Shown piece by piece: positions 1,998 to 21,261 of a stretch of 32,321 nt of DNA (positions within the stretch are counted from its first letter, which is position 1; each line of letters starts with the position of its first letter). The position numbers and the translations under genes were made by a program. Location of the stretch: NCBI GenBank assembly GCA_964361185.1, contig CAYHZS010000002.1, forward strand, positions 1-32,321, written 5' to 3'. Source of the DNA: an uncultured Candidatus Saccharibacteria bacterium. Lineage in GTDB: Bacteria > Patescibacteriota > Minisyncoccia > Phycocordibacterales > VMEP01. Under the pieces are notes generated by a model. That model saw only the letters and a program-made list of their open reading frames with translations. It was not told the origin of the DNA and made no database searches.

Positions 1998-2522
1998 TTA
2001 GAAAATAACACCGGCTTTCTCCGATTTTTTGAGCATTATCTTGAACCAGTAAGTATAATTTCCCGGATTTTGTCCGGTATCTTCTTTTAGCTTATCCATC
2101 GTTGTCCATTTCCAATCGTCCGCCTCCTCTGTGTTTAAAACAGGCTCGTCGTTGTACTCCCCCGAGAAAACATGAAGGAATTCATTTTCTTTTAGCCCTT
2201 TGTCCAGATTTGCCTGGTAGGTAAATGTAAGGATTTCTCGAAGTGGGCAATCAAAACCCATCTCTTCCTTTAACCTACGATGGGCGGCGGAGACAAGCTC
2301 CTCGCCGTCCCTTGGGTGCCCGCAACATGTATTGGTCCACAGCCCGCCACTGTGATATTTGCCCGAAGCTCTTTTCTGAAGCATCAGCTCTCCTTTAGTG
2401 TTAAAAATAAGAATGGAAAATGCCCGGTGCAGTAACCCCTTTTCGTGCGTTTCCATTTTACCCATTGTTCCTATTTGGGTATCATCTTCGTCCACCAATA
2501 TGACGTGTTCCTCACTTGGCAT
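1998..2522 (-). CDS. idi: Isopentenyl-diphosphate delta-isomerase, type 1 (Nudix fold)
   Basis: LLHRAFSILIFN...LWTNTCCGHP...NEF motifs are typical of type-1 IDI. Length is 174 aa. Confidence 0.85.
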   Translation of the reverse strand: MPSEEHVILVDEDDTQIGTMGKMETHEKGLLHRAFSILIFNTKGELMLQKRASGKYHSGGLWTNTCCGHPRDGEELVSAAHRRLKEEMGFDCPLREILTFTYQANLDKGLKENEFLHVFSGEYNDEPVLNTEEADDWKWTTMDKLKEDTGQNPGNYTYWFKIMLKKSEKAGVIF

Positions 2523-2542
2523 ATTCTGCTAATATATCAAAT

Positions 2543-3187
2543 ATGGACAAATTTGTAGAACTCCAAAAACTTGCGGACGAAATGCTAGCCGACAAAAATC
2601 TCCCCCTTGAAACAAATCTGGTTTTCGGCGAAGGAAATTCGGAGGCGGAAGTTCTATTTATCGGCGAAGCGCCGGGAGCGGAAGAAGATCGGCTTATAAG
2701 GCCCTTTGTCGGACGGTCGGGGCAATTACTTCGGAAAAATATTCGCGACATCGGCTGGAAAGAAGAAGATGTTTATATCACTAATATCGTAAAACGCCGG
2801 CCACCCGAAAATCGCGACCCGACCCCCGAAGAAATAGAGGCGTATAAGCCGTATCTCGCACGGCAAATTGAAATAATAAATCCGAAGATTATTGTGACAC
2901 TCGGTAGGTTTTCAATGAATTATTTTCTGCCTCTGGCAAAAGTTACTCGCGACCAAGGAAAACTTTTCCCGCTTGGAGAGAGATTTATCTATCCTATTCT
3001 TCATCCAGCCGCCGCCCTCCGCGGAAACGAGATGATGGGAATGTTTACGGGGAGTTTTAAGAAATTACCGGATGCGATAAAAAAATGTAAAGAACTTGAA
3101 ACAGGTGGTGCTGGAATGCCTGAAGAAAAAAACATTTATACTAAACAAAAAGAAGAAACACCAAAACAAACTGGCCTTTTTAAGTAG
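2543..3187 (+). CDS. Uracil-DNA glycosylase, family 4
   Basis: GEAPGAEED motif, FVGRSGQLL and HPAAALR motif B. The ORF track opens at a TTG (2516), but the ATG at 2543 is the more likely start. Confidence 0.85.
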   Translation: MDKFVELQKLADEMLADKNLPLETNLVFGEGNSEAEVLFIGEAPGAEEDRLIRPFVGRSGQLLRKNIRDIGWKEEDVYITNIVKRRPPENRDPTPEEIEAYKPYLARQIEIINPKIIVTLGRFSMNYFLPLAKVTRDQGKLFPLGERFIYPILHPAAALRGNEMMGMFTGSFKKLPDAIKKCKELETGGAGMPEEKNIYTKQKEETPKQTGLFK

Positions 3188-3272: not shown

Positions 3273-3827
3273 ATGGCTTTGTATACAAAAAAGGGAGATA
3301 GCGGTACAACAGGAACATTCGGTTGCGACCAACGCATTTCCAAAAGCTCGGCTATAGCCGAAGCGCTTGGAACATTGGATGAGATAAATTCGTTTTTGGG
3401 TATCTGTAAAATTAAGTCGGATGTTACAAGCTATATGTTACAGGTTACACGAGTGAGCGATATAGCGAACGGCGTTCAGCAAAACCTTTTTATAATTCAG
3501 GCGGAATTGGCGGGGGCGGATAAAACTATAGCTAAAGATAAAGTTGAAGAAGTGGAAAAAATTATAGACGGCATTGAAAAAGAACTGCCACCAATAAAAA
3601 CTTTTTTTGTGTCCGGCGGTACGGAACTTGCGGCGACATTTGATTTCGCCCGCACGCTCGCGCGCCGAGCAGAGAGGCGGGTAGTGGAAGTTTCGGAAAA
3701 TGGAGACAGAAAAGTCGGCGAGCATACGCTAGCGTATTTAAACCGCCTTTCAAGTTTGCTTTACGCTTTGGCTAGACTTTCAAATCACGAGGCGGGGATA
3801 ACGGAAGAAAAGCCAGAGTATAAGTGA
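3273..3827 (+). CDS. ATP:cob(I)alamin adenosyltransferase, PduO type
   Basis: N-terminal YTKKGDSGTTG motif, the helical-bundle remainder and the RRAERR segment are typical of PduO/MMAB-type enzymes. Confidence 0.85.
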   Translation: MALYTKKGDSGTTGTFGCDQRISKSSAIAEALGTLDEINSFLGICKIKSDVTSYMLQVTRVSDIANGVQQNLFIIQAELAGADKTIAKDKVEEVEKIIDGIEKELPPIKTFFVSGGTELAATFDFARTLARRAERRVVEVSENGDRKVGEHTLAYLNRLSSLLYALARLSNHEAGITEEKPEYK

Positions 3828-5501: not shown

Positions 5502-6140
5502 ATGAAAGGAGCTGTTATTTGGGGAACAGTAGTATTAGTACTAATAGGGACAGTTTTTGGCGTGGCTTGGCTTGCTAAAGCGCCCTCTTCCGGCACGGCT
5601 TTGACAATTCCGGAAATTTCCACCGCTGATCAAACCCGCGGTCCCAAAGATGCCAGAGTGGTCTTGGTTGAATACAGCGATTTCCAGTGTCCGGCTTGCG
5701 GAGCTTTTTTCCCCCGCCTGGAAGACCTAAATAAAGAGCTTGAAGGAAAAATCCTATTTATTTACAGAAATTTTCCGTTGCCCCAGCACAAAAACGCCGA
5801 ACTTGCCGCTTATGCCGCTGAAGCGGCCGGCAGGCAAGGAAAATTTTGGGAGATGCACTCCGTTCTCTTTGAAAAACAGAGCGAATGGTCGGAGCTCGCT
5901 GATGCCAAAGAGACATTCTACAAATACGCGGAATCAATCGGTTTGGATACGGGTTCTTTTAAAGCCGAGATGAATTCCGGAGAAGTCAAAGCCAAAATTT
6001 CGACAGATCGCGAGGGTGGCAGGCGCGCCTCGGTCAATTCAACCCCGACATTTTATTTGAATGGAAAGAAAATGGAAGGATATAATTCATATGATGATTT
6101 CGCAAAACAAGTCAGAGATGCCGTACAAAACAATCCCTAA
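5502..6140 (+). CDS. DsbA-like thiol:disulfide oxidoreductase (membrane-anchored thioredoxin fold)
   Basis: N-terminal TM helix, a CPAC active site within YSDFQCPACGAF, and a TPTFYLNG cis-Pro region. Confidence 0.85.
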   Translation: MKGAVIWGTVVLVLIGTVFGVAWLAKAPSSGTALTIPEISTADQTRGPKDARVVLVEYSDFQCPACGAFFPRLEDLNKELEGKILFIYRNFPLPQHKNAELAAYAAEAAGRQGKFWEMHSVLFEKQSEWSELADAKETFYKYAESIGLDTGSFKAEMNSGEVKAKISTDREGGRRASVNSTPTFYLNGKKMEGYNSYDDFAKQVRDAVQNNP

Positions 6141-6585
6141 TGCATTTGCCTGGGCAATTTTGGCCGTTGGCTTTTTGGGTTTTGTCGACGCGTTATATCT
6201 TACCGCCAAAAGGTTCCTTGGTTCGCCTCTCCAGTGTTATTTTTTTGGGGGATGCGACGCGGTTAACTCAAGTCCATACTCGAACCTCTTAGGAATACCC
6301 CTTTCTCTCTACGGCTCTGTGTTTTATCTCTTGGTTGTTCTGACCGCCGTGTATTATCTGCAAAGCAAAAATCCGGTAGCGGTGAAGGCTCTTATGGCAC
6401 TTACAACACTCGGCTTTCTTTTTGCCTGTTATACCTTCTCACTCCAGGCTTTTGTGATAAAAGCGTATTGTTTCTATTGCGTGCTTTCTATGGTGACCTC
6501 TACGGCAAATTTCGTTCTTATGTTTATCGCCTGGAAAAAATATTTCTCCAAAGAATCTAACACTCTGTCCGAAGAAAAAATTTAG
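6118..6585 (+). CDS. Vitamin K epoxide reductase (VKOR) family protein
   Basis: Four TM helices, a loop Cys pair (LQCYFFGGCD) and a CFYC active-site motif. The start is chosen at MPYKTIP. It overlaps the DsbA-like gene's end by 23 nt. Confidence 0.8.
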   Translation: MPYKTIPNAFAWAILAVGFLGFVDALYLTAKRFLGSPLQCYFFGGCDAVNSSPYSNLLGIPLSLYGSVFYLLVVLTAVYYLQSKNPVAVKALMALTTLGFLFACYTFSLQAFVIKAYCFYCVLSMVTSTANFVLMFIAWKKYFSKESNTLSEEKI

Positions 6586-9590: not shown

Positions 9591-10151
9591 ATGAAAAAAG
9601 TGACGTCTCTTCGCGAACTCAGGATGCTTATGAAGGATTTTGGCGTAGATACAAGCACTTGGGGTAGAGATAAAGCCAAAACTCTGACCCATCTTTTTTG
9701 CGAAGTCAGGGATGGTGAATGCGCTCTTGCCGTAACCGATGACGGCAGACTGGTCAGAGAGGTTTCCGTTCTCTGTCTGGATATTGAGTACAAGGGAATG
9801 GTTTTGAGAGAGGACTTCCAGCTTTTCTACGAGGGCAAGCGCCGACGCGAAAGGGAGCTTGATGCGTCAACGGGCGAAAAGTTTAAGCCTGGAGAAACAC
9901 CGGAACAAGCCCTTAGCCGCTTGGTCAACGAGGAGTTCCCGATCCTGTCCCTTCAGCCCAAAGAAGATTTCAAGTTTACGGGGGATAAGTTCAGGGAGTC
10001 AGACAGCGTAAGTTACCCCGGACTCCATACACGCTACCGACTGTGCTTTTTCGCGGTTGAGCTTACAGTGGAACTGCCGGCGATAACTGTCCAGGAGCCT
10101 GACAAGCTTGTGGCATACAAGTGGGTTGCCTCACCCACGCGGTCAACGTAA
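9591..10151 (+). CDS. Hypothetical protein, 186 aa, GC-richer orphan with a degenerate Nudix-box-like segment
   Basis: Strong SD GGAGGTG 5 nt before the ATG at 9591. GEKFKPGETPEQALSRLVNEEFPI resembles Gx5Ex7REUxEExGU, but with one extra residue and RL in place of RE. Confidence 0.55.
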   Translation: MKKVTSLRELRMLMKDFGVDTSTWGRDKAKTLTHLFCEVRDGECALAVTDDGRLVREVSVLCLDIEYKGMVLREDFQLFYEGKRRRERELDASTGEKFKPGETPEQALSRLVNEEFPILSLQPKEDFKFTGDKFRESDSVSYPGLHTRYRLCFFAVELTVELPAITVQEPDKLVAYKWVASPTRST

Positions 10152-10165
10152 CCAAGATGCGTAGC

Positions 10166-10199
10166 ATTGCCAGCCAACGAAAAGGACTGGCAATTTTTA
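10166..10199. terminator. Terminator between converging genes (orphan + / HAD operon -)
   Basis: ATTGCCAG pairs with CTGGCAAT, followed by TTTTT. Confidence 0.7.
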
Positions 10200-10208
10200 T
10201 CCCTATTT

Positions 10209-10865
10209 TTAAAGATACTTTTCGAGTTCAAGCAGGGAGGAGAGCTGCGGGCAATCAACGCCATCGTTTTTTTCTTTGATATTCACTAAAATACTTTTTA
10301 CTCCTATATTTTTTGGAACTTCATAGTCACTCATAACCCTGTCGCCGATATAAAGGAAATTTTCCGGAGGCAAATCATAAAAAGACAGCCATATTTTATA
10401 AGCTGAGCCGTCTGATTTTGAAGCGTCATCTTTAGTGATAATGTGGCTGAAGATTTCTTTGCCGATGTCGAGCTTCTTAAGTTTTCTATGGGTTATTGAA
10501 CCGTTAGATCCGGTGATTACATCCAAATTTTTATATTTTTCTTTAAGTTTTTTTAAAAGATTTATAGTCTCCGGGTTTGGAACGAGGAATGAGGCTATGT
10601 CGGCCCTCTCGAGCGCTTCCTGGACGATTTCTTTTCCGTTTGGTATCTCCAGAGTCGCAAGCGCCTTGCTCCCTCCCATACCCGCTCCATCTTTGTAAAG
10701 ATCGGCGAAAAGCGCCCTCGCCTCTCCCAAGGAGCACTTTTTGCTCGCGGCAATTTTTTCATAAATATATTTTTGAATTGCCTCGTCAATTTCCGGCGAT
10801 TTCGGATACAGAGTCTGGTCAAGATCAAAGCCAATGACTTTAGTTTTATTTTTGTAATCAATCAT
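10209..10865 (-). CDS. HAD-superfamily hydrolase, resembles pyrimidine 5'-nucleotidase (SDT1-like) subfamily
   Basis: FDLDQTLY motif I, ITGSN motif II region and YIGDRVMSD motif IV. Its ATG overlaps the stop of the upstream 803-aa gene (ATGA). Confidence 0.75.
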   Translation of the reverse strand: MIDYKNKTKVIGFDLDQTLYPKSPEIDEAIQKYIYEKIAASKKCSLGEARALFADLYKDGAGMGGSKALATLEIPNGKEIVQEALERADIASFLVPNPETINLLKKLKEKYKNLDVITGSNGSITHRKLKKLDIGKEIFSHIITKDDASKSDGSAYKIWLSFYDLPPENFLYIGDRVMSDYEVPKNIGVKSILVNIKEKNDGVDCPQLSSLLELEKYL

Positions 10866-13273
10866 TGTGTAAAAGCGACGTAAAACAAAGAAAGGTTCCC
10901 AAGGGGATATCCAAGTGTTTCACTGAATTTTGTCGATATATAGTTTAGTAATTCAAGGTCTTCTTTTTGTTTGCTAATGGAATGGTTCATAAAGACTGCC
11001 GTCGCGTGTACTTTACCGCCCATTACGTTCGCCTGGAAGAACGCCAAATAGTCTCCCTGAGGGTCCATTTTTCCGGCTTTGTACTCCGTTAAAATAGGAT
11101 TATTATGCATTACTCCTTTTTCTTTAAGATAGAAAATAGCTTTTTCAATTGTGTTTACACCCTCCATATTTTCCAGCCGGTCGAGAATAAAATTATTTGG
11201 TCGCGAAGCTATTTTCTGAAGAGGGACAAAGCTATAAGCAACACCGGTTTCATTCGCCAAAGGAAACTTGGTGTTTTCGGCTAGCTGGTATGGTCCGCTT
11301 TTTGAATCAATTTCATCCATCGGTTTAGATGGTTCGCTCATCAGTTTTTTAGACCGCTGTTCTTCAGTCAGAAGGAGTATGTTTGCTCTACTTGATAACA
11401 TATACATATCTCCGGGTTTCGCGCCGAGTTTCTCTCTAACGGTGCATATATAAGCGTCATGAAGACCAAATATATTTTCGGGGTACGCATTCACGGTATT
11501 ATGGGCGCGAGCTATGTGAAATGAGTGCAGATGTCCGTTTTGCAGAAAAAAAATATCATGAGTAAGGCACGGGTCGTGCGTGTACTTTGTTTTGCCGGTG
11601 TCCGGGTCGGTATAGCTTCTCATGTCTTCTACCGGGTCAAAGCGCTGTATTATAGCGGCTCTAGTCGGATTATTTTTTAGAACAAGGGCGGTTTTAGGGA
11701 GCTGATCAAAGCCAAAAAACACCCTCGTGCGTTCCCCGTAGCTATAGTCGCCATCATGGTCAAAACGCAGAAGCTGGGCTTTGTAAGCCTCACGTATTTC
11801 TTCAGTACTTCTCTCTCCCTGTTTGTATATTGCCGAAAGCGAGGCCAGCGCTTTTGCGGCATTGCGGTAAATCGCGAGCATTACCGCGGAACGAGCCGAC
11901 CCTTTTTGCTTATCGCCGTGTTCTTCCGTAAGTCCTTGAGTATATATTTTCATAAGGACTTGCTTATGTACGTCTAAAAAATTATCCCCGTCGGCTATGA
12001 GTAGGGGAAGACTCTCCGTATTAATCTTGAAAATGTTTGGGAAGTCTTGAATAAAAGCGTAATTAAACGAAGCGGCTATGGTGGCCCGGCCGATTTGCCC
12101 ACCAATGTCAATTCGGTGCAGTATGTCCATTTCGTAGTTCTCAAAGCGGTTATTTTCGGACAGCCATTCAAAAAGCCCGCCGATTTTTAGAGATCGCAGT
12201 TCGAAAACTTCCTCGCAGACATCAAAAGCGAGGCACATTACCGCTACTTGGCTCTCCCTTACGTTAATTTTGTAATAATATTTTTTATCGGTTATGAGAG
12301 AAACTTTTGATTCAAGCATTATTTCTTTTTGCCCGGTAAGGTTCTTTGATTTCACGAAAGAAGGGAATTTTATTTCATTTTTTATCTCCGCGCTTACGCG
12401 GGCAATTTCCGCTCCCAGGAAAAACTGGTTTAAGTTGCCTATTTCTTTTTTCCTGTCGCCTAAAAATTTCATAAGGGAATATTCAAGCAAAAATTCGTCC
12501 GGACTTTTTATAAAAAAAGTGTCTTCACCTACCCTGATATCCAGGCGGATTAATCCTTTTTTGTTTTGCACTATAAAATCAACTTCAGGGACAAATTCTT
12601 TCGGAGGTATGTCTATTTTGGGTGGTTGCAGATGCTGAAATTCTTTCGGGTCAAGCTCCACAACTCCGCGTTCTTTAGGCGCGGATGCTCCAAGGAGAGA
12701 CACAAGCTTGTTCAATGAGTCGTAATATATTTTCCCTGTTTCGTTCGCTTCTTTCAAAAATTCATATACGTCTGATGGCAGTTTTGGACGCGCCCATTCC
12801 AGATAGTCAATGACTATCTTCTTGCCGTAATCGTTCTTGTACATGAACATCGGTAGGACTGTTATATTGTCGCGGAATGAATCCACTATTTTTTCGGAGA
12901 GGCTCGGGTAGTGTGACGAGGCCGCCTTGCCGTTTATTATCTGGTGGTCGCGGTCTTCGATGTTGATTCCATACTGAAGCGCCAAGAGAAGATTCGTGCT
13001 TGGTGAAAAGGTGAGCGACTCCTCGGAGAAAAGTATGAGATATGAGAGCGTGGGGTGGGACAGGGAATTTAGTATCATTCTTTCGGCCCCATCCCGGCTT
13101 ACGATAAGAGAACCCAAGACCGAAACAAAACGCCGTTCCTTTCCCTCAAGTTCATTCAGCACCTGTCCCGGGGCGGTGGTGTTGGTGCAGATGCCTATAA
13201 AACCGTCTTTACCCTCAGGTGGAGTTAAGAGAAGCGCATCCACTATCGGGAATTGGGAAATTTTTACAGCCAT
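10862..13273 (-). CDS. 803-aa fusion of an MtrA-like domain, two DUF4346-like modules, a thymidylate-synthase-fold domain and a degenerate TS-like C-terminal segment
   Basis: Residues ~1-165 (nt 12779-13273) align by eye to MtrA: G.L....DGAE..I.NSLSHP.LSYLILFSEES...L..GI......I.G. Residues ~228-412 (nt 12038-12592) hold two modules ending FLGAEIARVSAEI and RIDIGGQIGRATIAASFNYAFIQD. Residues ~425-640 (nt 11354-12001) carry YGER...FDQLPKTALVLKNNPTRAAIIQRFDP...DPCLTHDIFFLQNGHLHSFHIARAHN...YPENI, with the Cys codon at 11567-11569. Confidence 0.7.
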   Translation of the reverse strand: MAVKISQFPIVDALLLTPPEGKDGFIGICTNTTAPGQVLNELEGKERRFVSVLGSLIVSRDGAERMILNSLSHPTLSYLILFSEESLTFSPSTNLLLALQYGINIEDRDHQIINGKAASSHYPSLSEKIVDSFRDNITVLPMFMYKNDYGKKIVIDYLEWARPKLPSDVYEFLKEANETGKIYYDSLNKLVSLLGASAPKERGVVELDPKEFQHLQPPKIDIPPKEFVPEVDFIVQNKKGLIRLDIRVGEDTFFIKSPDEFLLEYSLMKFLGDRKKEIGNLNQFFLGAEIARVSAEIKNEIKFPSFVKSKNLTGQKEIMLESKVSLITDKKYYYKINVRESQVAVMCLAFDVCEEVFELRSLKIGGLFEWLSENNRFENYEMDILHRIDIGGQIGRATIAASFNYAFIQDFPNIFKINTESLPLLIADGDNFLDVHKQVLMKIYTQGLTEEHGDKQKGSARSAVMLAIYRNAAKALASLSAIYKQGERSTEEIREAYKAQLLRFDHDGDYSYGERTRVFFGFDQLPKTALVLKNNPTRAAIIQRFDPVEDMRSYTDPDTGKTKYTHDPCLTHDIFFLQNGHLHSFHIARAHNTVNAYPENIFGLHDAYICTVREKLGAKPGDMYMLSSRANILLLTEEQRSKKLMSEPSKPMDEIDSKSGPYQLAENTKFPLANETGVAYSFVPLQKIASRPNNFILDRLENMEGVNTIEKAIFYLKEKGVMHNNPILTEYKAGKMDPQGDYLAFFQANVMGGKVHATAVFMNHSISKQKEDLELLNYISTKFSETLGYPLGNLSLFYVAFTQ

Positions 13274-14148
13274 TTTTTACTAGACCATTGATTCGGCAAA
13301 AGCTCATCCAGAGAGTATTGCTTGAATTCCATTGTGTCTTTGGCGAAACAGTACAATTTAATATTCAAATCGTATTTGGCGCTTATTTCGGCCAGAAATT
13401 GTCGGCAGCATCCGCAAATCTCACACGGGGTGTCGGTAAATTTTGTTGACACTAAACCGAGCGCGGTAATTTTTGTTTTGTCGTTCATAAGGGCAAGGAT
13501 TGGCGCCGCCATTTCACTATGGATGCTTCCTCTTTTTTCAAAACTGGAATATTGCCCGGTATAGTATATTGTCCCGTCCTCCGTCAGCACGGCCGTGCTG
13601 TAGGCACTCGCGTTGTCGTAGGTATGGAAGCACTTGCTAAGCCCCTCATCAGCGTATTTCTTAAGCTGGTCTTTCACAGAAAGACTTTTGTCAAAGGTGG
13701 CTTTATTTTCGGAAATAACCGCTCCCGTTACTTTTGAGAGTATCTTTTGAGGCGGACGATAAAAACTGATTGTTTCGGAGATCTTTGGGGCCGAGAATAT
13801 CTCGCGCCCGTCCATGTCTATTATTCTATACCTGATTTCGCTACCGGTCCGCACGCAGAAATCAATCATGGTTTTTACCGTAAACGGATTTACCATAAAG
13901 CCGTCGCTTTTTTCCACTAGAGTTACCATTTCCTCCACTTCGTAATCGCTATGAGATACCGCCAAAAGAAGAGCCGATTGTTCCGAAGAAATGTTCAGTA
14001 GATTCGTGTCGGAGTCGATATTCGCCCCGCGGTATTTCCGCCCGCTTTTTGAATAGCAGACGGAAGAGGTCCGGTTCGCCCCCCCGATGACTTTTTTAAC
14101 GACAGCGAGAGGAAGCCCGTCTTTCAAATAAGATAACTCGTCAGCCAT
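13264..14148 (-). CDS. Tandem cytidine/deoxycytidylate-deaminase-fold protein (N-terminal half degenerate, C-terminal half with Zn motifs)
   Basis: The C-terminal half has SIHSEMAA...TPCEICGCCRQFLAE...LLPNQW, which matches the (H/C)AE...PCxxC pattern with HSE. The N-terminal half has SSEQSALLLAV and no PCxxC. Confidence 0.7.
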   Translation of the reverse strand: MADELSYLKDGLPLAVVKKVIGGANRTSSVCYSKSGRKYRGANIDSDTNLLNISSEQSALLLAVSHSDYEVEEMVTLVEKSDGFMVNPFTVKTMIDFCVRTGSEIRYRIIDMDGREIFSAPKISETISFYRPPQKILSKVTGAVISENKATFDKSLSVKDQLKKYADEGLSKCFHTYDNASAYSTAVLTEDGTIYYTGQYSSFEKRGSIHSEMAAPILALMNDKTKITALGLVSTKFTDTPCEICGCCRQFLAEISAKYDLNIKLYCFAKDTMEFKQYSLDELLPNQWSSKKWL

Positions 14149-14150
14149 AT

Positions 14151-15044
14151 TTAAATGTTGCTCCTTAACTTGCTGACACTCAACTGGGCGGCTTCCCAGT
14201 CATAATGTAGAGTTTTTTTAATGAAGTCGTTTAACAGATGAATTTTGTCTCTTTCGAGTCGCGGGTACATTTTTTCCGATTTCTTGCTGGTGAGGCGGAC
14301 AGTAGGAACAAATGAAACAGGAAAAGCGTAATACGGCAGAAGCGGGCGCCTTGGTGACTCTGGTTCCACCAAAATGGCTGTGATTGGCTTACCGAGTTTT
14401 TCTATGGCGTAGTCGATTCGGTGAGCACCGTCACAGATGATGTAAAAATCTTGCTTGCCGTTGTATCTTAGCCCGTAATTTATAATCGGAGCGTTCGAGT
14501 TGAAAACATCCAGATAATCTAGTTTGCTCACTTCGTCGATGTAGAATGAAGTTAGGAATCTCTTTGAAATGTTATGCAAATTATTGCGCGCGTCGGTTGT
14601 ATATGTATTTTCAAATCGTTTGCTGATTTTATCAAGGTCAAGATATCCATTTTTAAGTTCGTAGGTATGTTTTTCGATAATGGGTGGCAGTATGTGGAAA
14701 TCCCCGCGTCCCTCCCAATTGTACTGAAGCCCGTTTTTTAAGTTGTTTATACGCATTTTATGCGCGCGCAGAAATTTATCGACGGTATCAAAAACCTCCA
14801 TTTGGTTTTCGTAAATCGTCGGCTGGGGAGTAAAAAGATTGTGCTTTTTATCATCAACGGCTATTTTTGGAGACTGACCTATTTTTTGGGGTGGGTGTAT
14901 CGTAACCAGTTTAAATTTTGCCCGCTGGTATGGTTTTAGGGACATTCCTTTCTTATCAAAAAGTCCGCGAAAAACCACTTTCCGCAACATTGATGTCAGT
15001 TGGGCAAACGGGATTATCCCCTTCAAAACTAGCTTTTCTTTCAT
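14151..15044 (-). CDS. ParB/sulfiredoxin-fold-like protein (hypothetical, 297 aa)
   Basis: FYIICDGAHRIDYAIEKLGKPITAILVE matches the DGxHR core of the ParB/Srx fold. An upstream ILPPII segment is also present. There is no P-loop. Confidence 0.45.
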   Translation of the reverse strand: MKEKLVLKGIIPFAQLTSMLRKVVFRGLFDKKGMSLKPYQRAKFKLVTIHPPQKIGQSPKIAVDDKKHNLFTPQPTIYENQMEVFDTVDKFLRAHKMRINNLKNGLQYNWEGRGDFHILPPIIEKHTYELKNGYLDLDKISKRFENTYTTDARNNLHNISKRFLTSFYIDEVSKLDYLDVFNSNAPIINYGLRYNGKQDFYIICDGAHRIDYAIEKLGKPITAILVEPESPRRPLLPYYAFPVSFVPTVRLTSKKSEKMYPRLERDKIHLLNDFIKKTLHYDWEAAQLSVSKLRSNI

Positions 15045-15050
15045 TGTCTA

Positions 15051-15079
15051 AATATATAGTTAAGTTGGCGATGTTGCAA
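15051..15079 (-). promoter_or_regulatory. Putative sigma70-type promoter of the ParB-like operon: TTGCAA-17 nt-TATATT
   Basis: The -35 is at 15074-15079 and the -10 at 15051-15056. Only 6 nt separate the -10 from the ATG (15044) and there is no SD, which suggests a leaderless transcript. Confidence 0.5.
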
Positions 15080-15110
15080 TATTGAACAATTCTCTATTTT
15101 ACTTGCAATT

Positions 15111-15119
15111 TGCTACAAT
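15111..15119 (+). promoter_or_regulatory. Extended -10 element TGcTACAAT of dut
   Basis: It ends 6 nt before the dut ATG (15126) and there is no SD, which suggests a leaderless transcript. Confidence 0.5.
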
Positions 15120-15125
15120 ATTTTA

Positions 15126-15548
15126 ATGAAAATAAAGGTTAAAAAACTGACAAAGGATACGAAAATTCCGGCATACGCCTATCCGGGGGATGCGGCTTTT
15201 GATTTGCTCGCGCGGGTGGAAACGGAGTTAAACCCCGGTGAATGGAAAAATGTCCCGACCGGGCTTGCTTTTGAAATACCGGAAGGATACGCGGGGCTTA
15301 TTTGGGACAAATCGAGCGTTGCCATGAAAAATGGAATCAAAACATTAGGGGGAGTGATAGATTCCGGTTACCGCGGAGAAGTGGACGTAGGGGTTATTAA
15401 TTTAAGCGACAAACTGTATCTTTTTGAAAAGGGGCACAAGGTGGCTCAGATGATAATTCAAAAAATAGAACAGGCAGAAATTATTGAAGTTGCGGGGCTA
15501 AGCGAAACTAAGCGGGGAGACAAGGGTTTTGGCAGTTCGGGGAAATAA
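15126..15548 (+). CDS. dut: dUTP diphosphatase (trimeric dUTPase)
   Basis: AYPGDAAFDL, GVIDSGYRGE and RGDKGFGSSG are dUTPase motifs. Confidence 0.95.
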   Translation: MKIKVKKLTKDTKIPAYAYPGDAAFDLLARVETELNPGEWKNVPTGLAFEIPEGYAGLIWDKSSVAMKNGIKTLGGVIDSGYRGEVDVGVINLSDKLYLFEKGHKVAQMIIQKIEQAEIIEVAGLSETKRGDKGFGSSGK

Positions 15549-17763: not shown

Positions 17764-20700
17764 ATGGACAAAAAAGATTCCAACGAAAAAAGAAAATCAG
17801 AAGTGGCGCTTACTGAAGAGCGTATTTTGGCCGGCTGGAAAGAAAAAAAGATTTTTGAGAAAACTCTTGAAAAGACCAAGAACGGTAAGCTGTTTGTTTT
17901 TTACGATGGCCCGCCTTTTGCGACAGGAGAGCCTCACTACGGGCATATTTTGGCAGGCACGATAAAAGATGCCATTCCGCGCTACCGCACAATGACGGGG
18001 CGGTATGTGAGGCGCCAGTGGGGTTGGGACTGTCATGGTCTTCCTGTTGAAAATATCATAGAGCAGGAACTCAAACTTTCTCACAAAAAAGACATAGAAG
18101 AATATGGCATAGGCAATTTCAATGAAGCGGCGCGGAGTGCCGTGCTTAGGTTTGATTCATTTTGGAAAAAGGCGGTACCGAGACTTGGGCGTTTCGTGGA
18201 CATGGATTTGTCGTATAAAACTATGGATGCCTCTTATTCTGAATCAATCTGGTGGGCGTTTAAAACTCTTTACGACAAAGGGCTCATATATGAAGGACAT
18301 AAAGTAATGTATGTCTGTCCCAGATGCGAGACACCAGTCTCCAATTTTGAGGTGGCGCAGGGGTATAAAGATACAACCGATATTTCGGTGACAGTGGAGT
18401 TTAAGTTGGTTGATAGTCCCGGCACATCTTTTCTGGCGTGGACTACTACGCCGTGGACGTTACCGGGCAATGTGGCTCTTGCTGTGGGTAAAGATATCGA
18501 CTATGTGACGATTGAGAAGAAAGACGAAGGTGTCGGAAAGAAAATTCGGTTCATTCTTGCGAAAAGTCGCCTTGAAACAATTTTTGCGGGGCAAGAATAT
18601 GTCATTGTGGCCGAGCACAAGGGGATGGATTTGGTTGGCATCAAGTATGTGCCACCCTTCGATTACTACTATAAAGATGAGTTATTAAATAACCGCGAAA
18701 ATGGTTGGAAGGTCTACGCGGCAGATTTCGTTTCAGCAGATGAGGGCACAGGCATAGCTCACGAAGCCCCAGCGTTTGGCGAGGATGACATGAATTTAGG
18801 CAACGAAGTTAAGTTGCCATTTGTCCAACACATAGAGATGGATGGACGATTTAAACCGGAGGTCAAAGATTTTGCCGGCATGTATGTAAAACAGAAAGAC
18901 GATACGCAGTCGGCGGATGTGGAAATCATAAAAAATCTGGCCAAGAGAAATCTGCTTTTCGCCAAAGAAAAAATAATCCATCCGTACCCAATGTGCTGGA
19001 GATGCGACACGCCTCTTCTCAATTACGCCACTCCGTCTTGGTTCGTTAAGGTAACGAAATTCCGCGACAAGGTCGTTTCAGAAAATAAAAAAGTCTGCTG
19101 GGTGCCGGAGCATGTGGGAGAAGGAAGATTCGGCAAATGGCTCGAAGGCGCGCGCGATTGGGCTATTTCACGTTCGCGCTATTGGGGCGCGCCTTTGCCC
19201 GTTTGGAAATGCCTGGAATGTGAAAAGGTTGAAGCGATAGGGAGCATAGAAGAGTTAAAGAAAAAAATTCCTAAAAGTGGCAATCGTTATTTTGTTATGC
19301 GCCACGGCCAGGCGGAAAGTAATGTTTCCGGGACCAATGATTCCAATGGTAATCCCGATAATCATCTTACGGAGAGCGGGAAGGAAAGTATAAAACTTGT
19401 CGCTAGTAAACTCTCTAAAGAAGGAATAACCCGTATCATAACGTCACCCTTCCCCCGCGCCAAAGAAAGCGCGGACATTATAGCGAATGAGCTAGGATTA
19501 TCGGAAGAGAAGATTGTATCAGATAGGCGCTTGATTGAATTCAATCATGGCTCCAAAGGTCAAGGTAAAACAATAATGAATAACACCTTAGAACCTTTTA
19601 ATGAAAATGATTTATATGTTAGGCATGGCGATGGTGAAAATCACGCAGAAGTCAGGACAAGGGTAGTTTCAGCTATATTCGACGCGGACAAAACATATAA
19701 GAATGAAACTATTCTCATAGTCACGCACGGTTCTCCCATGTGGATGCTTATTGCCGGAGCTCTAGGCATGAGCGACAAGGAAACACTGGAATATCAGAAA
19801 AAGCGTGCTAAAAATAATGGGGATTATTTCATCTCAAACGGCCAGGTTGAGGAGGTTGATTTTACACAGTTTCCTCACAATAAGGAGTATGTTATTGATT
19901 TACACCGCCCGTACATAGACGAGGTGATTTATGATTGCTCTTGTGGAGGAACGATGAAAAGAATTCTGGACGTTTTTGACTGCTGGTTTGAATCGGGGTC
20001 AATGCCTTACGCGCAGTTCCATTATCCATTTGAGAACAAGGAGGAATTCAAGAAAAATTTTCCGGCTGATTTTATTGCTGAAGGTCTCGACCAAACGCGC
20101 GGTTGGTTTTACAGCCTGATTATTTTGGGCGTCGGGCTTTTTGGAGAAACACCATACAGAAATGTCATCGTGAACGGACTGGTTTTGGGAAGTGACGGGC
20201 AGAAAATGTCCAAGCGTCTCAAGAATTATCCGGAAGTTATGGATGTGGTGGATAAATACGGCGCTGATTCTTTGCGATATTACCTCTTATCTTCTCCAAT
20301 AATGCGCGGGGAAGACTTGGTATTTTTGGAAAAAGGAATTGATGAAATATACAAGAAAAATATTTCCCGCCTCAATAATGTTTACTCTTTTTACGAATTA
20401 TATAAGGGAGACGAAAAGGGAAGCGACACTTCGGAAAATATTCTGGATAAATGGATTATCGCGCGCCTGAATGAACTTAAAAATGTAATGACCGAGGGGA
20501 TGGAAAAATACGAGCTTGATAAAGTGGCGAGGCCAGTCGCGGATTTTATTGACGATCTTTCCACATGGTATATCAGGCGCTCGCGCGAAAGATTTAAATC
20601 AGACAATGAAAATGATAAAAAAATGGCGCTTGAGACAACCCATTTTGTGCTTGAGGAATTTTCCAAGCTCATTGCCCCGCTTATGCCGTTTATAGCGGAT

Positions 20701-21261
20701 GATTTGTATTTGAAAGTTACACGTGGGGAAAAAGAAGAAAGCGTGCATTTGGAATCTTGGCCCAGTAACAACGGACAACGAACAACCAACAACCAACAAG
20801 TAATACAAGAAATGCAAAAGGTGCGTCAAATTGTTTCGCTTGGACTTGAGGCGAGATCGAAGGCGGGGATAAAAGTGAGGCAGCCGCTTCAAAACTTAAA
20901 ACTCAAAACTCAAAACTTAGAACCTGAATATATTGAATTAATTAAAGATGAAGTAAATGTGAAGGGAGTTACTTTTGATGAAGAGATTGAAAATGAAGTT
21001 GAATTGGATACAAATATTACACCAGAACTAAAAGAAGAAGGCGATGTTCGCGATTTAGTACGCGCTATTCAGGATTTCAGAAAAAAGGAAGGTCTTACTC
21101 CGAGCGACAAGGTTGCGCTTTTGGTTTCCTGCGACGAAAAAACAGCTTCTTTGATAAAAAAGAATGAAGATGAGTTAAAGCACTCAACTCTTTTAAGTCA
21201 TATATCCATTTCAAACTCCGACGGAGAAACTTCTTTCCAGGTGCTTAATCCGGGGTCGTAA
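17764..21261 (+). CDS. ileS: Isoleucine--tRNA ligase (type-2-like) carrying an inserted histidine-phosphatase domain
   Basis: PHYGH (HIGH), WAISRSRYWGAPLPVW, DQTRGWFYS and KMSKRL are IleRS signatures. At 1165 aa it is longer than expected because of the insert at 19285-19860. Confidence 0.95.
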   Translation: MDKKDSNEKRKSEVALTEERILAGWKEKKIFEKTLEKTKNGKLFVFYDGPPFATGEPHYGHILAGTIKDAIPRYRTMTGRYVRRQWGWDCHGLPVENIIEQELKLSHKKDIEEYGIGNFNEAARSAVLRFDSFWKKAVPRLGRFVDMDLSYKTMDASYSESIWWAFKTLYDKGLIYEGHKVMYVCPRCETPVSNFEVAQGYKDTTDISVTVEFKLVDSPGTSFLAWTTTPWTLPGNVALAVGKDIDYVTIEKKDEGVGKKIRFILAKSRLETIFAGQEYVIVAEHKGMDLVGIKYVPPFDYYYKDELLNNRENGWKVYAADFVSADEGTGIAHEAPAFGEDDMNLGNEVKLPFVQHIEMDGRFKPEVKDFAGMYVKQKDDTQSADVEIIKNLAKRNLLFAKEKIIHPYPMCWRCDTPLLNYATPSWFVKVTKFRDKVVSENKKVCWVPEHVGEGRFGKWLEGARDWAISRSRYWGAPLPVWKCLECEKVEAIGSIEELKKKIPKSGNRYFVMRHGQAESNVSGTNDSNGNPDNHLTESGKESIKLVASKLSKEGITRIITSPFPRAKESADIIANELGLSEEKIVSDRRLIEFNHGSKGQGKTIMNNTLEPFNENDLYVRHGDGENHAEVRTRVVSAIFDADKTYKNETILIVTHGSPMWMLIAGALGMSDKETLEYQKKRAKNNGDYFISNGQVEEVDFTQFPHNKEYVIDLHRPYIDEVIYDCSCGGTMKRILDVFDCWFESGSMPYAQFHYPFENKEEFKKNFPADFIAEGLDQTRGWFYSLIILGVGLFGETPYRNVIVNGLVLGSDGQKMSKRLKNYPEVMDVVDKYGADSLRYYLLSSPIMRGEDLVFLEKGIDEIYKKNISRLNNVYSFYELYKGDEKGSDTSENILDKWIIARLNELKNVMTEGMEKYELDKVARPVADFIDDLSTWYIRRSRERFKSDNENDKKMALETTHFVLEEFSKLIAPLMPFIADDLYLKVTRGEKEESVHLESWPSNNGQRTTNNQQVIQEMQKVRQIVSLGLEARSKAGIKVRQPLQNLKLKTQNLEPEYIELIKDEVNVKGVTFDEEIENEVELDTNITPELKEEGDVRDLVRAIQDFRKKEGLTPSDKVALLVSCDEKTASLIKKNEDELKHSTLLSHISISNSDGETSFQVLNPGS
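19285..19860 (+). other. Histidine-phosphatase (PGAM/CobC-like) domain embedded in ileS
   Basis: RYFVMRHGQAESN (RHG motif), SPFPRAKESA, LIEFNHG..GQGKT, GENHAEVRTRV and ILIVTHGSPMWML (second His motif). The segment lies between KCLECE and DCSCGG. Confidence 0.8.
20765..20799 (-). repeat. Heptad array E inside ileS: GTAACAA CGGACAA CGAACAA CCAACAA CCAACAA
   Basis: Five 7-mers on the C/A strand (complement TTGTTGG TTGTTGG TTGTTCG TTGTCCG TTGTTAC). They encode SNNGQRTTNNQQ. Confidence 0.75.
20891..20925 (+). repeat. Heptad array F inside ileS: AAAACTT AAAACTC AAAACTC AAAACTT AGAACCT
   Basis: Five 7-mers that encode QNLKLKTQNLEP. Confidence 0.75.

Follow-up and report, generated by a model that had tools for sequence, protein, structure and literature searches.

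Thymidylate synthesis is essential for every DNA-based cell, and to our knowledge only two classes of thymidylate synthase (TS) have been established, ThyA and ThyX. With their minimal genomes, bacteria of the candidate phyla radiation (CPR) and DPANN archaea account for much of microbial diversity, and most of them remain uncultured. Here we analyze a four-gene operon in a 32,321-nucleotide stretch of DNA from an uncultured Candidatus Saccharibacteria bacterium (contig CAYHZS010000002.1; hereafter the window), which encodes a ParB-CE protein, a two-domain cytidine deaminase (CDA), an 803-aa protein with a TS-fold domain and a phosphatase of the haloacid dehalogenase (HAD) superfamily, and which lies head-to-head with dut. 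The module is inherited as a block across bacteria and archaea, its components appear catalytically intact as judged from their conserved motifs, and its most likely task is the conversion of cytosine-type DNA precursors to thymidylate, or to a related modified base, by an unusual TS relative together with ParB-CE and HAD as putative helper proteins.

Among described enzymes, methanogen-type TS (TIGR03283) is the best-scoring family for the TS-fold domain, and both share a P-C-L active site, a Y-[ST]-Y-G-x-R motif, a D-Q pair and R-x-H at the Arg166 site (Escherichia coli ThyA numbering). We know of no reconstitution of the full reaction of methanogen-type TS. Archaeal MtrA-TS-DUF4346 proteins of ~480 aa carry the same MtrA-like and DUF4346 accessory domains, and some reach the TIGR03283 cut-off. 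The window family, in contrast, falls far below that cut-off (57 vs 174.55 bits), carries Asn in place of Asp169 and no longer has the S-x-S-A-H-x-Y motif; its DUF4346 domain precedes the TS domain, and it has two further domains of no recognized family. It is also always found with ParB-CE, HAD and a deaminase, whereas the Asp169-bearing member P0294 is without these partners and adjoins a Mur-ligase-family gene, possibly FolC.

With the classical thymidylate cycle of ThyA, dihydrofolate reductase (DHFR) and serine hydroxymethyltransferase (SHMT), the window system shares the TS fold, an implied covalent Cys catalysis, a uracil-reading Asn and dut and SHMT neighbors, and like the bifunctional DHFR-TS it has a large fusion protein built around a TS domain. 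It differs from both in several respects: the loci showed neither a DHFR domain nor a DHFR gene, other residues stand at the folate contacts, MtrA-like and DUF4346 domains take the place of DHFR as extra domains, and two additional proteins are obligate partners. The phage flavin-dependent 5-hydroxy-dCMP synthases (RB69 gp48, DLP3 gp80 and HY126 AfhB; structures 9iqu and 9iqc) have a short TS fold that is the best structural match and carry the same Asp169-to-Asn signature. However, the phage enzymes have Asp at position 177 (cytosine) where the window protein has Asn (uracil), and they are single-domain and viral; the Asp169 sisters of the window family share its partners.

At the level of the whole module, the nearest parallels are phage modules that manage deoxypyrimidine pools. 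T4 encodes a dCTPase/dUTPase, dCMP deaminase, dCMP hydroxymethylase and deoxynucleoside monophosphate (dNMP) kinase, and PBS2 and SPO1 encode nucleotidases. A dNTP pyrophosphatase, a C-to-U deaminase, a TS-fold enzyme, a nucleotidase and possibly a kinase are common to these and the window module, but the latter is cellular, occupies a housekeeping position and is rare in viral contigs, and its putative kinase or activator has a ParB-like fold as opposed to the P-loop fold of dNMP kinases. The phage thymine dioxygenases (5mYOX) also have a ParB-family protein as the dedicated partner of a pyrimidine-C5-modifying enzyme, and there the ParB partner is an activator and not a catalyst (PMC13229309). 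That enzyme is an iron- and 2-oxoglutarate-dependent dioxygenase acting on DNA, however, and its ParB keeps CTP-binding and dimerization domains, whereas ParB-CE is a separate Pfam family with no significant whole-fold match to solved ParB/Srx structures.

Layout and inheritance of the four-gene block

The four minus-strand open reading frames (ORFs) follow each other in the order ParB-CE (14151-15044, 297 aa), two-domain CDA (13264-14148, 294 aa), TS-fold protein (10862-13273, 803 aa) and HAD (10209-10865, 218 aa). They are joined by a 2-nt gap (14149-14150), a 10-nt overlap (13264-13273) and a 4-nt ATGA overlap (10862-10865), and an 81-bp spacer (15045-15125) separates them from the divergent dut. 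The coordinates, gap, overlaps and head-to-head arrangement put forward in an earlier sequence-only reading of this DNA all match the ORF list. All four ORFs are real genes, since the 803-aa protein has >160 and the 297-aa protein >210 full-length relatives and the catalytic motifs are conserved. The operon, 5.3 kb in size, is strongly conserved and sits next to ribosomal-protein genes in its CPR and DPANN carriers.

An exhaustive profile search recovered a tight family of full-length 803-aa proteins, sister proteins of 800-900 aa (MtrA, DUF4346, TS) and many ~480-aa MtrA-TS-DUF4346 proteins, some at the methanogen-TS cut-off, in addition to stand-alone methanogen TS. The closest relative of the 803-aa protein (86% identity) is from a Candidatus Paceibacterota metagenome-assembled genome (MAG). 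Across CPR the 2.4-kb TS-fold gene retains 52-86% identity, and the archaeal homologues are full length and 42-47% identical. Our locus scan, with one genome per species and the submitters' taxonomic labels, comprised 52 loci, 41 from CPR and 11 from archaeal MAGs. The former represent Paceibacterota, Kaiser-, Zambryski-, Nomura-, Vogel- and Sungiibacteria and MAGs labelled Saccharibacteria or Peribacteria; the latter represent Woesearchaeota, Nanoarchaeota/Nanoarchaeia, Iainarchaeum, three MAGs labelled 'archaeon' and one labelled Methanosarcinales. In three loci (L036, L045 and L043) a typical CPR/DPANN block stands in a MAG labelled Gammaproteobacteria or Methanosarcinales, probably owing to binning or labelling errors.

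Neighborhoods were counted by searching all ORFs of the loci with the window proteins. Among loci with enough flanking DNA, ParB-CE followed by CDA lies directly upstream of the TS-fold gene on the same strand in 34/34 CPR and 8/10 archaeal loci, and HAD lies directly downstream in 35/36 and 11/11, respectively; one archaeal locus is ordered TS, HAD, ParB-CE, CDA. The co-localization of the four genes that had been proposed from the window holds in nearly every related genome examined, also across domains. The proposed link to dut stands as a frequent association but not as a constant one, with dut in the flank of 19/41 CPR loci and 1/11 archaeal loci. SHMT occurs within the flank in 13 CPR loci, in some of them directly upstream (e.g., L041). 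Single contigs carry fusions of CDA with the TS protein (P0246) and of the TS protein with HAD (P0247), which could be frameshift artefacts because the genes overlap. No canonical ThyA or ThyX was found in the fetched CPR/DPANN loci, which comprise flanks and not whole genomes; the sole RHR...S motif match of plausible length (353 aa) was rejected as a beta-lactamase-family protein.

The block extends beyond CPR and DPANN. A Magnetococcales contig encodes a TS (492 aa), HAD, ParB-CE and a dCTP deaminase. A second contig, probably archaeal because it encodes the RNase P subunit Rpr2, has TS, HAD and ParB-CE followed by NrdR and a class II ribonucleotide reductase. A metagenome contig has dCMP deaminase, TS and HAD, and a distant 877-aa relative has ParB-CE just upstream. 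Among 80 metagenome loci retrieved through ParB-CE, 23 contain dCMP deaminase, HAD, ParB-CE and TS, mostly in that order, and 8 contain HAD, ParB-CE and TS. A further 15 have dCMP deaminase and ParB-CE only, in housekeeping surroundings, and of the others three involve dCTP deaminase and 20 have ParB-CE alone. The TS-like genes in these loci nearly always adjoin HAD, and no further recurrent partner beyond the four functions was found in the 80 loci. The deaminase slot is thus filled by three unrelated, non-homologous types, namely CDA, dCMP deaminase and dCTP deaminase. The window operon is the CPR/DPANN variant of a widespread four-component deoxypyrimidine module, distinguished by its two-domain CDA and the extra domains of its TS protein; the suggestion that the gene set is peculiar to reduced genomes is not borne out, given its occurrence in Magnetococcales, archaeal and metagenome contigs. 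ParB-CE also occurs outside the TS module, either solitary or paired with dCMP deaminase alone, and solitary ParB-CE genes recur beside a D-Ala-D-Ala ligase and an HD-domain gene (L074, L084, L067 and similar metagenome loci).

In annotated phage genomes the 803-aa protein gave weak TS matches only and ParB-CE none, while viral contigs gave five ParB-CE matches. We observed a 522-aa MtrA-TS fusion, its TS domain bearing a large insertion, in a virus-like stretch of another locus (L006 6001-7569) that contains a resolvase, a PD-(D/E)XK gene and numerous small ORFs lacking annotation; the cluster to which this fusion belongs includes a Thermoprotei archaeon protein. Within an incomplete coverage of the literature, we found no paper on the module, DUF4346 or ParB-CE, although the ParB-CE domain must have been delineated by someone because Pfam has a model for it. 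As the sequence-only reading had supposed, no description of this gene combination was found, and the module is apparently undescribed.

Domains and active site of the TS-fold protein

The AlphaFold2 (AF2) model of the 803-aa protein (pLDDT 84), from which the approximate domain boundaries are taken, comprises five domains and a linker, all encoded on the minus strand. An MtrA-like alpha/beta domain (residues 20-165; 12779-13216) is matched by NF002126 (2e-7, below cut-off) and reaches 14.7 bits against PF04208, for which the cut-off is 25; 42/54 family members match Pfam MtrA (PF04208; best 5.9e-7), and the family profile matches PDB entries 8q3v and 5laa at E ~1e-3. The MtrA cobalt (corrinoid) ligand His84 aligns with an invariant Phe, F89, in this family. 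A helical linker (residues 165-215) leads to a beta-rich, two-helix domain of no recognized family (residues 215-305; 12359-12631; pLDDT ~90), which has no Pfam match and resembles DUF4346 weakly by hhalign (probability 15%). The DUF4346 domain proper (PF14251, 'PterinBD-DUF4346'; residues 325-410; 12044-12301) aligns with the DUF4346 segments of the sister proteins by hhalign (probability 97.9%, E 3.8e-13), and PF14251 matches the equivalent place in P0246. It is followed by the TS-fold domain (residues 420-685; 11219-12016) and a C-terminal alpha/beta domain (residues 690-803; 10865-11206; pLDDT 88-97), for which neither a Pfam match nor similarity to the other domains of the protein was found. 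A pseudo-dimer of degenerate TS repeats was considered and rejected, hhalign between the domain blocks having found nothing. Elsewhere in the window, positions 3273-3827 (+) encode a PduO-type ATP:cob(I)alamin adenosyltransferase, which is also present ~6 kb from the module in six related loci. The organism therefore handles corrinoids, which may be relevant to the MtrA-like domain; a B12-dependent ribonucleotide reductase, of which none was seen in the window, would also account for the gene.

Assignment of the TS fold comes from both profile and structure. TIGR03283 matches the 803-aa protein at 1.6e-15 (57.1 bits, below the cut-off), while PF00303 has no match in the window protein and a weak one in 8/54 relatives only. 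A Foldseek search of the AF2 model against PDB returned >400 matches at E <=0.001, and the top 50 are all TS-fold chains (E 1e-8 to 1e-7; TM 0.5-0.7 to targets), headed by the phage dCMP hydroxylase 9iqu (TM 0.70) with the FAD-containing 9iqc close behind. Several 803-aa relatives are labelled thymidylate synthase by JGI.

The active site was mapped by hhalign to E. coli ThyA and by multiple alignment with methanogen-type TS, with invariance judged from 54 sequences. The catalytic Cys146 is kept as C569 (codon 11567-11569) within an invariant D567-P568-C569, the phosphate-binding Arg166 as invariant R589 and the uracil-specifying Asn177 as invariant N600, the last two spaced as in ThyA. Tyr94/Gly95 are kept as Y512/G513, and the D-Q pair of I-D-Q-I (E. 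coli residues ~110-111) as D523/Q524. The position of Asp169, which binds the pterin ring of methylene-tetrahydrofolate, is taken by an invariant Asn (N592), and Leu172, Phe176, His207 and Tyr209 are replaced by N595, E599, N631 and L633, respectively. His207 and Tyr209 contact the deoxyribose 3'-OH; the S-x-S-A-H-x-Y motif is absent, in a stretch where the alignment is less certain. The 803-aa protein looks built for covalent C6 activation of a uracil nucleotide and, as these alignments predict, cannot bind folate or deoxyribose in the manner of ThyA.

The Asp169 position divides the wider family. Asn is present in 50/50 readable CPR/DPANN sequences, and methanogen-type TS and the sister families keep Asp; among 114 profile-search matches with a readable active-site motif, 74 have Asp and 38 Asn, while Asn177 (N600) is retained in all members. 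The partner-linked TS-like proteins of metagenomes include both states, with Asn in 17 and Asp in 5 of 22 readable sequences, the five being of the 800-880-aa sister type. D169N was accordingly rejected as a rule for partnership with HAD and ParB-CE, and Asn169 does not define the module because the Asp169 sisters share the same partners. A rule based on Leu143, which separates methylation from hydroxymethylation, proved not transferable, methanogen-type TS also being polar or acidic there.

Partner proteins, promoters and surroundings

The first gene of the operon (14151-15044, -) was assigned to ParB-CE on the basis of a Pfam match to PF24392 'ParB CE' (3.5e-4, 21 bits vs a cut-off of 23), a full-length hhalign match to short ParB-CE (PF24392) proteins (probability 99.3%, E 1.3e-20) and an invariant motif. 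PF24392 is recorded for many close relatives, and relative to the short members of the family the window protein has an insertion of ~65 residues. The invariant family motif, C204-D205-G206-x-H208-R209, aligns in register with GGCHR of sulfiredoxin, and a PYYAFP motif is also present. Despite a confident AF2 model (pTM 0.86), Foldseek found no significant fold match in PDB or BFVD (best PDB E 0.29), the ParB/Srx matches spanning 26-30 residues around the motif. The hhalign comparison with human sulfiredoxin was not significant (probability 0.25%), and nothing relevant came up when PDB sequences were queried with the protein itself, with its family profile or with one of the short family members. 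We rejected a whole-fold ParB/Srx assignment on these grounds; membership of the ParB/Srx superfamily is plausible from the motif and family match. The assignment rests on one motif and the Pfam family, so a kinase role is tentative; ParB-CE may serve as a nucleoside triphosphate (NTP)-dependent kinase, as a (d)CTP-binding protein that teams up with the deaminase, or as an activator with no catalytic role. The last option has a precedent in the ParB-dependent thymine dioxygenases (PMC13229309).

The 294-aa deaminase combines a degenerate N-terminal CDA-like domain (13699-14148, -) with a catalytic C-terminal one (13267-13686, -). In the former, delineated by a PDB alignment of residues 30-75 to Bacillus subtilis CDA and by 48 homologues, SSEQ replaces C/H-A-E, and E56 but not the zinc ligands is conserved. 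In the latter, H210-x-E212 and C245-G-x-C248 supply the residues H210, E212, C245 and C248, each >=95% conserved in the 48 homologues, and the CDA models TIGR01354 (1.4e-11, 44.7 bits vs a cut-off of 113.65) and TIGR01355 (9.5e-10, 38.2 bits vs a cut-off of 275) both match below cut-off. The E. coli-type CDA likewise pairs a catalytic with a degenerate domain in one polypeptide (~294 aa) and has His/Cys/Cys zinc ligands, but there the domain order is reversed relative to the window deaminase, whose catalytic domain is C-terminal and whose ribose-binding N-x-E region is apparently not conserved.

The HAD phosphatase (10209-10865, -) has motifs I-IV intact and matches Pfam HAD_2 (PF13419) above cut-off (2.6e-13, 50.9 bits vs 23.8); D14, D16, T18, T118, S120, K150, D175 and D180 are >=95% conserved in 47 homologues. 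The pyrimidine 5'-nucleotidase model TIGR01993 (2e-15, 57 bits vs a cut-off of 142.9) and the YjjG family model TIGR02254 (1.8e-8) match below their cut-offs, and the nearest solved relatives are PH1655 and the plant XMP phosphatase 7ef6. The phosphatase may act on substrate, product or cofactor. Of the folds named in the sequence-only reading, the TS fold (TIGR03283 at 1.6e-15; Foldseek E 1e-8, TM 0.6-0.7), the CDA fold (profile and structure searches, with one active-type and one degenerate domain) and the HAD fold (most similar to pyrimidine 5'-nucleotidases, below the equivalog cut-off) were all recovered. The ParB/Srx fold stands as far as Pfam 'ParB CE' membership and a strand/D-G-x-H-R/helix signature go, but without a significant whole-fold match.

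The divergent dut gene (15126-15548, +) is a dUTP diphosphatase (NF001862, 1.3e-40, above cut-off). Convergent with HAD in the window is a NUDIX-like gene (9591-10151, +; Pfam NUDIX 9.8e-6), and a divergent NUDIX-like gene follows HAD in at least 14 CPR loci. Archaeal blocks have a NUDIX gene (L042 6182-6889, -) or a weakly MazG-like gene (L049 6293-6997, -) between the CDA and TS genes. The NUDIX-like gene may be a fifth, looser member of the module. A second NUDIX hydrolase gene (1998-2522, -) stands head-to-head with a uracil-DNA glycosylase family gene (2516-3187, +), and this pair is further uracil- and nucleotide-sanitation capacity near the module.

The operon promoter proposed from the sequence, TTGCAA-17-TATATT (15051-15079, -), is present, and both hexamers are kept in two relatives (L007 and L008) that differ from the window ahead of the first hexamer and in part of the spacer; a consensus scan, however, gave 9 promoter-like sites in the region against 9.7 +/- 3.9 by chance. 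The TATATT element ends 6 nt before the ATG of the ParB-CE gene, so the operon transcript would be leaderless, and an extended -10 element of dut, TGnTACAAT, as read from the sequence, likewise ends 6 nt before the dut ATG. Both divergent genes thus appear leaderless, and the core elements in the spacer (15045-15125) are kept in the two relatives. The hairpin previously taken for the operon terminator exists (10166-10194, -14 kcal/mol, z -2.3), but the adjoining U-run lies on the plus strand (10166-10200, +, between the convergent HAD and NUDIX-like genes) and on the operon (minus) strand the hairpin has no U-tract. It is therefore a canonical terminator for the NUDIX-like gene (9591-10151), and mainly that gene's.

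The surroundings, with SecE/NusG/L11 upstream and ArgRS, IleRS and MetRS downstream, are those of a small CPR genome, and an Rfam search of the window found no riboswitch or leader and one tRNA only. Within the window, the IleRS-like gene (17764-21261, +; 1165 aa) carries a His_Phos_1 domain at residues 510-676, inserted in the middle of the class I synthetase, and a 1195-aa protein in a related locus (L002) has the same Pfam pattern. An overlapping pair of DsbA-like thioredoxin and VKOR genes (5502-6585, +) indicates extracytoplasmic disulfide formation in the source organism.

Proposed function and competing explanations

The substrate of the TS-fold enzyme is most likely dUMP, supplied from dC nucleotides and dUTP, because three unrelated deaminases share one slot and because dUTPase, NUDIX/MazG and ribonucleotide reductase genes lie nearby. 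We favor a partner-dependent, non-canonical route to dTMP and give this reading an even chance; three features favor dTMP as the product, namely the adjacent SHMT genes, descent from methanogen-type TS and a housekeeping location within minimal genomes. In such a route the active C-terminal CDA domain would deaminate a dC-derived nucleotide or nucleoside to the dU level, and Dut or the NUDIX/MazG neighbors would cut dUTP to dUMP. The TS-fold domain would then bind dUMP, with Asn600 reading the uracil, Arg589 the phosphate and Cys569 attacking C6, and a one-carbon unit would be placed on C5 to yield dTMP. Since replacements affect the folate-binding Asp169 and the hydrophobic residues of the p-aminobenzoic acid (PABA) pocket, we predict that the MtrA-like and DUF4346 domains handle a cofactor, pterin-type or other, in a way that differs from ThyA. 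Our best guess for the constant partners HAD and ParB-CE is that they would set the phosphorylation state of substrate or product, as nucleotidase and as NTP-dependent kinase or activator, respectively. That the genes lie next to L11/NusG/SecE/ArgRS, in genomes that are very small, speaks for an essential role.

Several observations weigh against dTMP synthesis. By family, the window CDA resembles a nucleoside deaminase rather than a nucleotide deaminase, although its true substrate may be a nucleotide because a dCMP or dCTP deaminase fills the slot in other lineages. A nucleotidase after a dTMP-forming enzyme is not obviously useful, and the adjacency of SHMT and dut could partly reflect conserved synteny within CPR. 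The invariant D169N, the loss of the His207/Tyr209 equivalents and the polar residues at the Leu172 and Phe176 positions mean that the folate and deoxyribose contacts of ThyA are absent from the 803-aa protein. In phage TS homologues, moreover, D169N is diagnostic of enzymes that have exchanged folate for flavin and hydroxylate instead of methylating (PMC13326640); 9iqu, the structure that best matches the 803-aa protein, is one such hydroxylase.

These last points lead to the alternative that a cofactor-switched TS fold makes another 5-substituted dUMP, such as 5-hydroxy-dUMP or 5-hydroxymethyl-dUMP, which we consider possible but rather unlikely. ParB-CE (as kinase or activator) and HAD (as nucleotidase on a competing or modified monophosphate) might then process the product further, much as in phage modules by which thymine is substituted or modified; the TS switch itself would parallel that of the phage 5-hydroxy-dCMP synthases. 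Asn169 in all readable CPR/DPANN proteins and in 17/22 ParB-CE-linked metagenome proteins, the flavin-type signature, the leading Foldseek matches and the way in which deaminase, dUTPase, TS-fold enzyme, nucleotidase and possible kinase mirror the nucleotide-pool modules of T4, SPO1 and PBS2 all speak for such a product. However, Asp169 is retained by the 800-880-aa sisters, whose HAD, ParB-CE and deaminase partners are the same, the module lies in housekeeping contexts of minimal genomes and not in mobile or defense islands, the adjacent SHMT in 13 loci fits a folate one-carbon donor, and ParB-CE is rare in viral contigs (five matches) and had no match in annotated phage genomes. O2-dependent hydroxylation is also a poor fit to the anaerobic life of many CPR and DPANN lineages.

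It is distinctly unlikely, in our view, that the module serves pyrimidine deoxynucleotide pool management (salvage, sanitation or a substrate cycle) and not biosynthesis. Under such a scheme, the levels of dC and dU nucleotides would be under the control of the deaminase, the nucleotidase and a ParB-CE that binds NTPs, and the TS-fold protein would be one consumer among several. The 15 housekeeping loci that pair ParB-CE with dCMP deaminase alone, the 20 in which it is solitary, the nearby NUDIX or MazG-like genes and the resemblance of HAD to house-cleaning pyrimidine nucleotidases (YjjG, TIGR02254 at 1.8e-8; XMP phosphatase 7ef6) are what such a role predicts, but the TS-like gene is almost always accompanied by HAD, fusions join CDA, TS and HAD, and a 2.4-kb gene conserved at 52-86% identity across CPR is an unlikely side branch. 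We hold it to be very improbable that the 803-aa protein is no more than a decorated but ordinary TS whose neighbors are linked by synteny only. The catalytic Cys, Arg166 and Asn177 equivalents are present and JGI annotates several members as thymidylate synthase, but at 57 bits the protein is well short of the TIGR03283 cut-off (174.55) and lacks a PF00303 match, and other residues stand in for Asp169, His207 and Tyr209. In addition, translational coupling joins the genes, fusions exist, and the partners persist in bacteria and archaea alike even where gene order and deaminase type change. The functional alternatives named in the sequence-only reading, that is, non-canonical thymidylate synthesis, a salvage route or a C5-modified pyrimidine, are still the right candidates.

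Returning to the partner-dependent synthesis of dTMP, a tentative and more specific proposal, which we regard as somewhat unlikely, is that the module constitutes a third thymidylate route, in which a ThyA fold without the classical folate site works with MtrA-like and DUF4346 domains and perhaps flavin or a corrinoid, and needs ParB-CE and HAD. If this proposal is true, dUMP would be methylated without dihydrofolate production, and the module would be the sole source of dTMP in many CPR and DPANN organisms, exchanged between both radiations.

As a candidate for the way in which CPR bacteria and DPANN archaea make or modify thymine, the module is concrete and testable. It would give a function to Pfam families that now have none, namely ParB-CE, DUF4346 and the soluble MtrA-like domains, and it bears on metabolic reconstructions that now count the 803-aa gene as 'thyA'. 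If the enzyme is mechanistically distinct, it may provide selective targets or markers for CPR and DPANN lineages.

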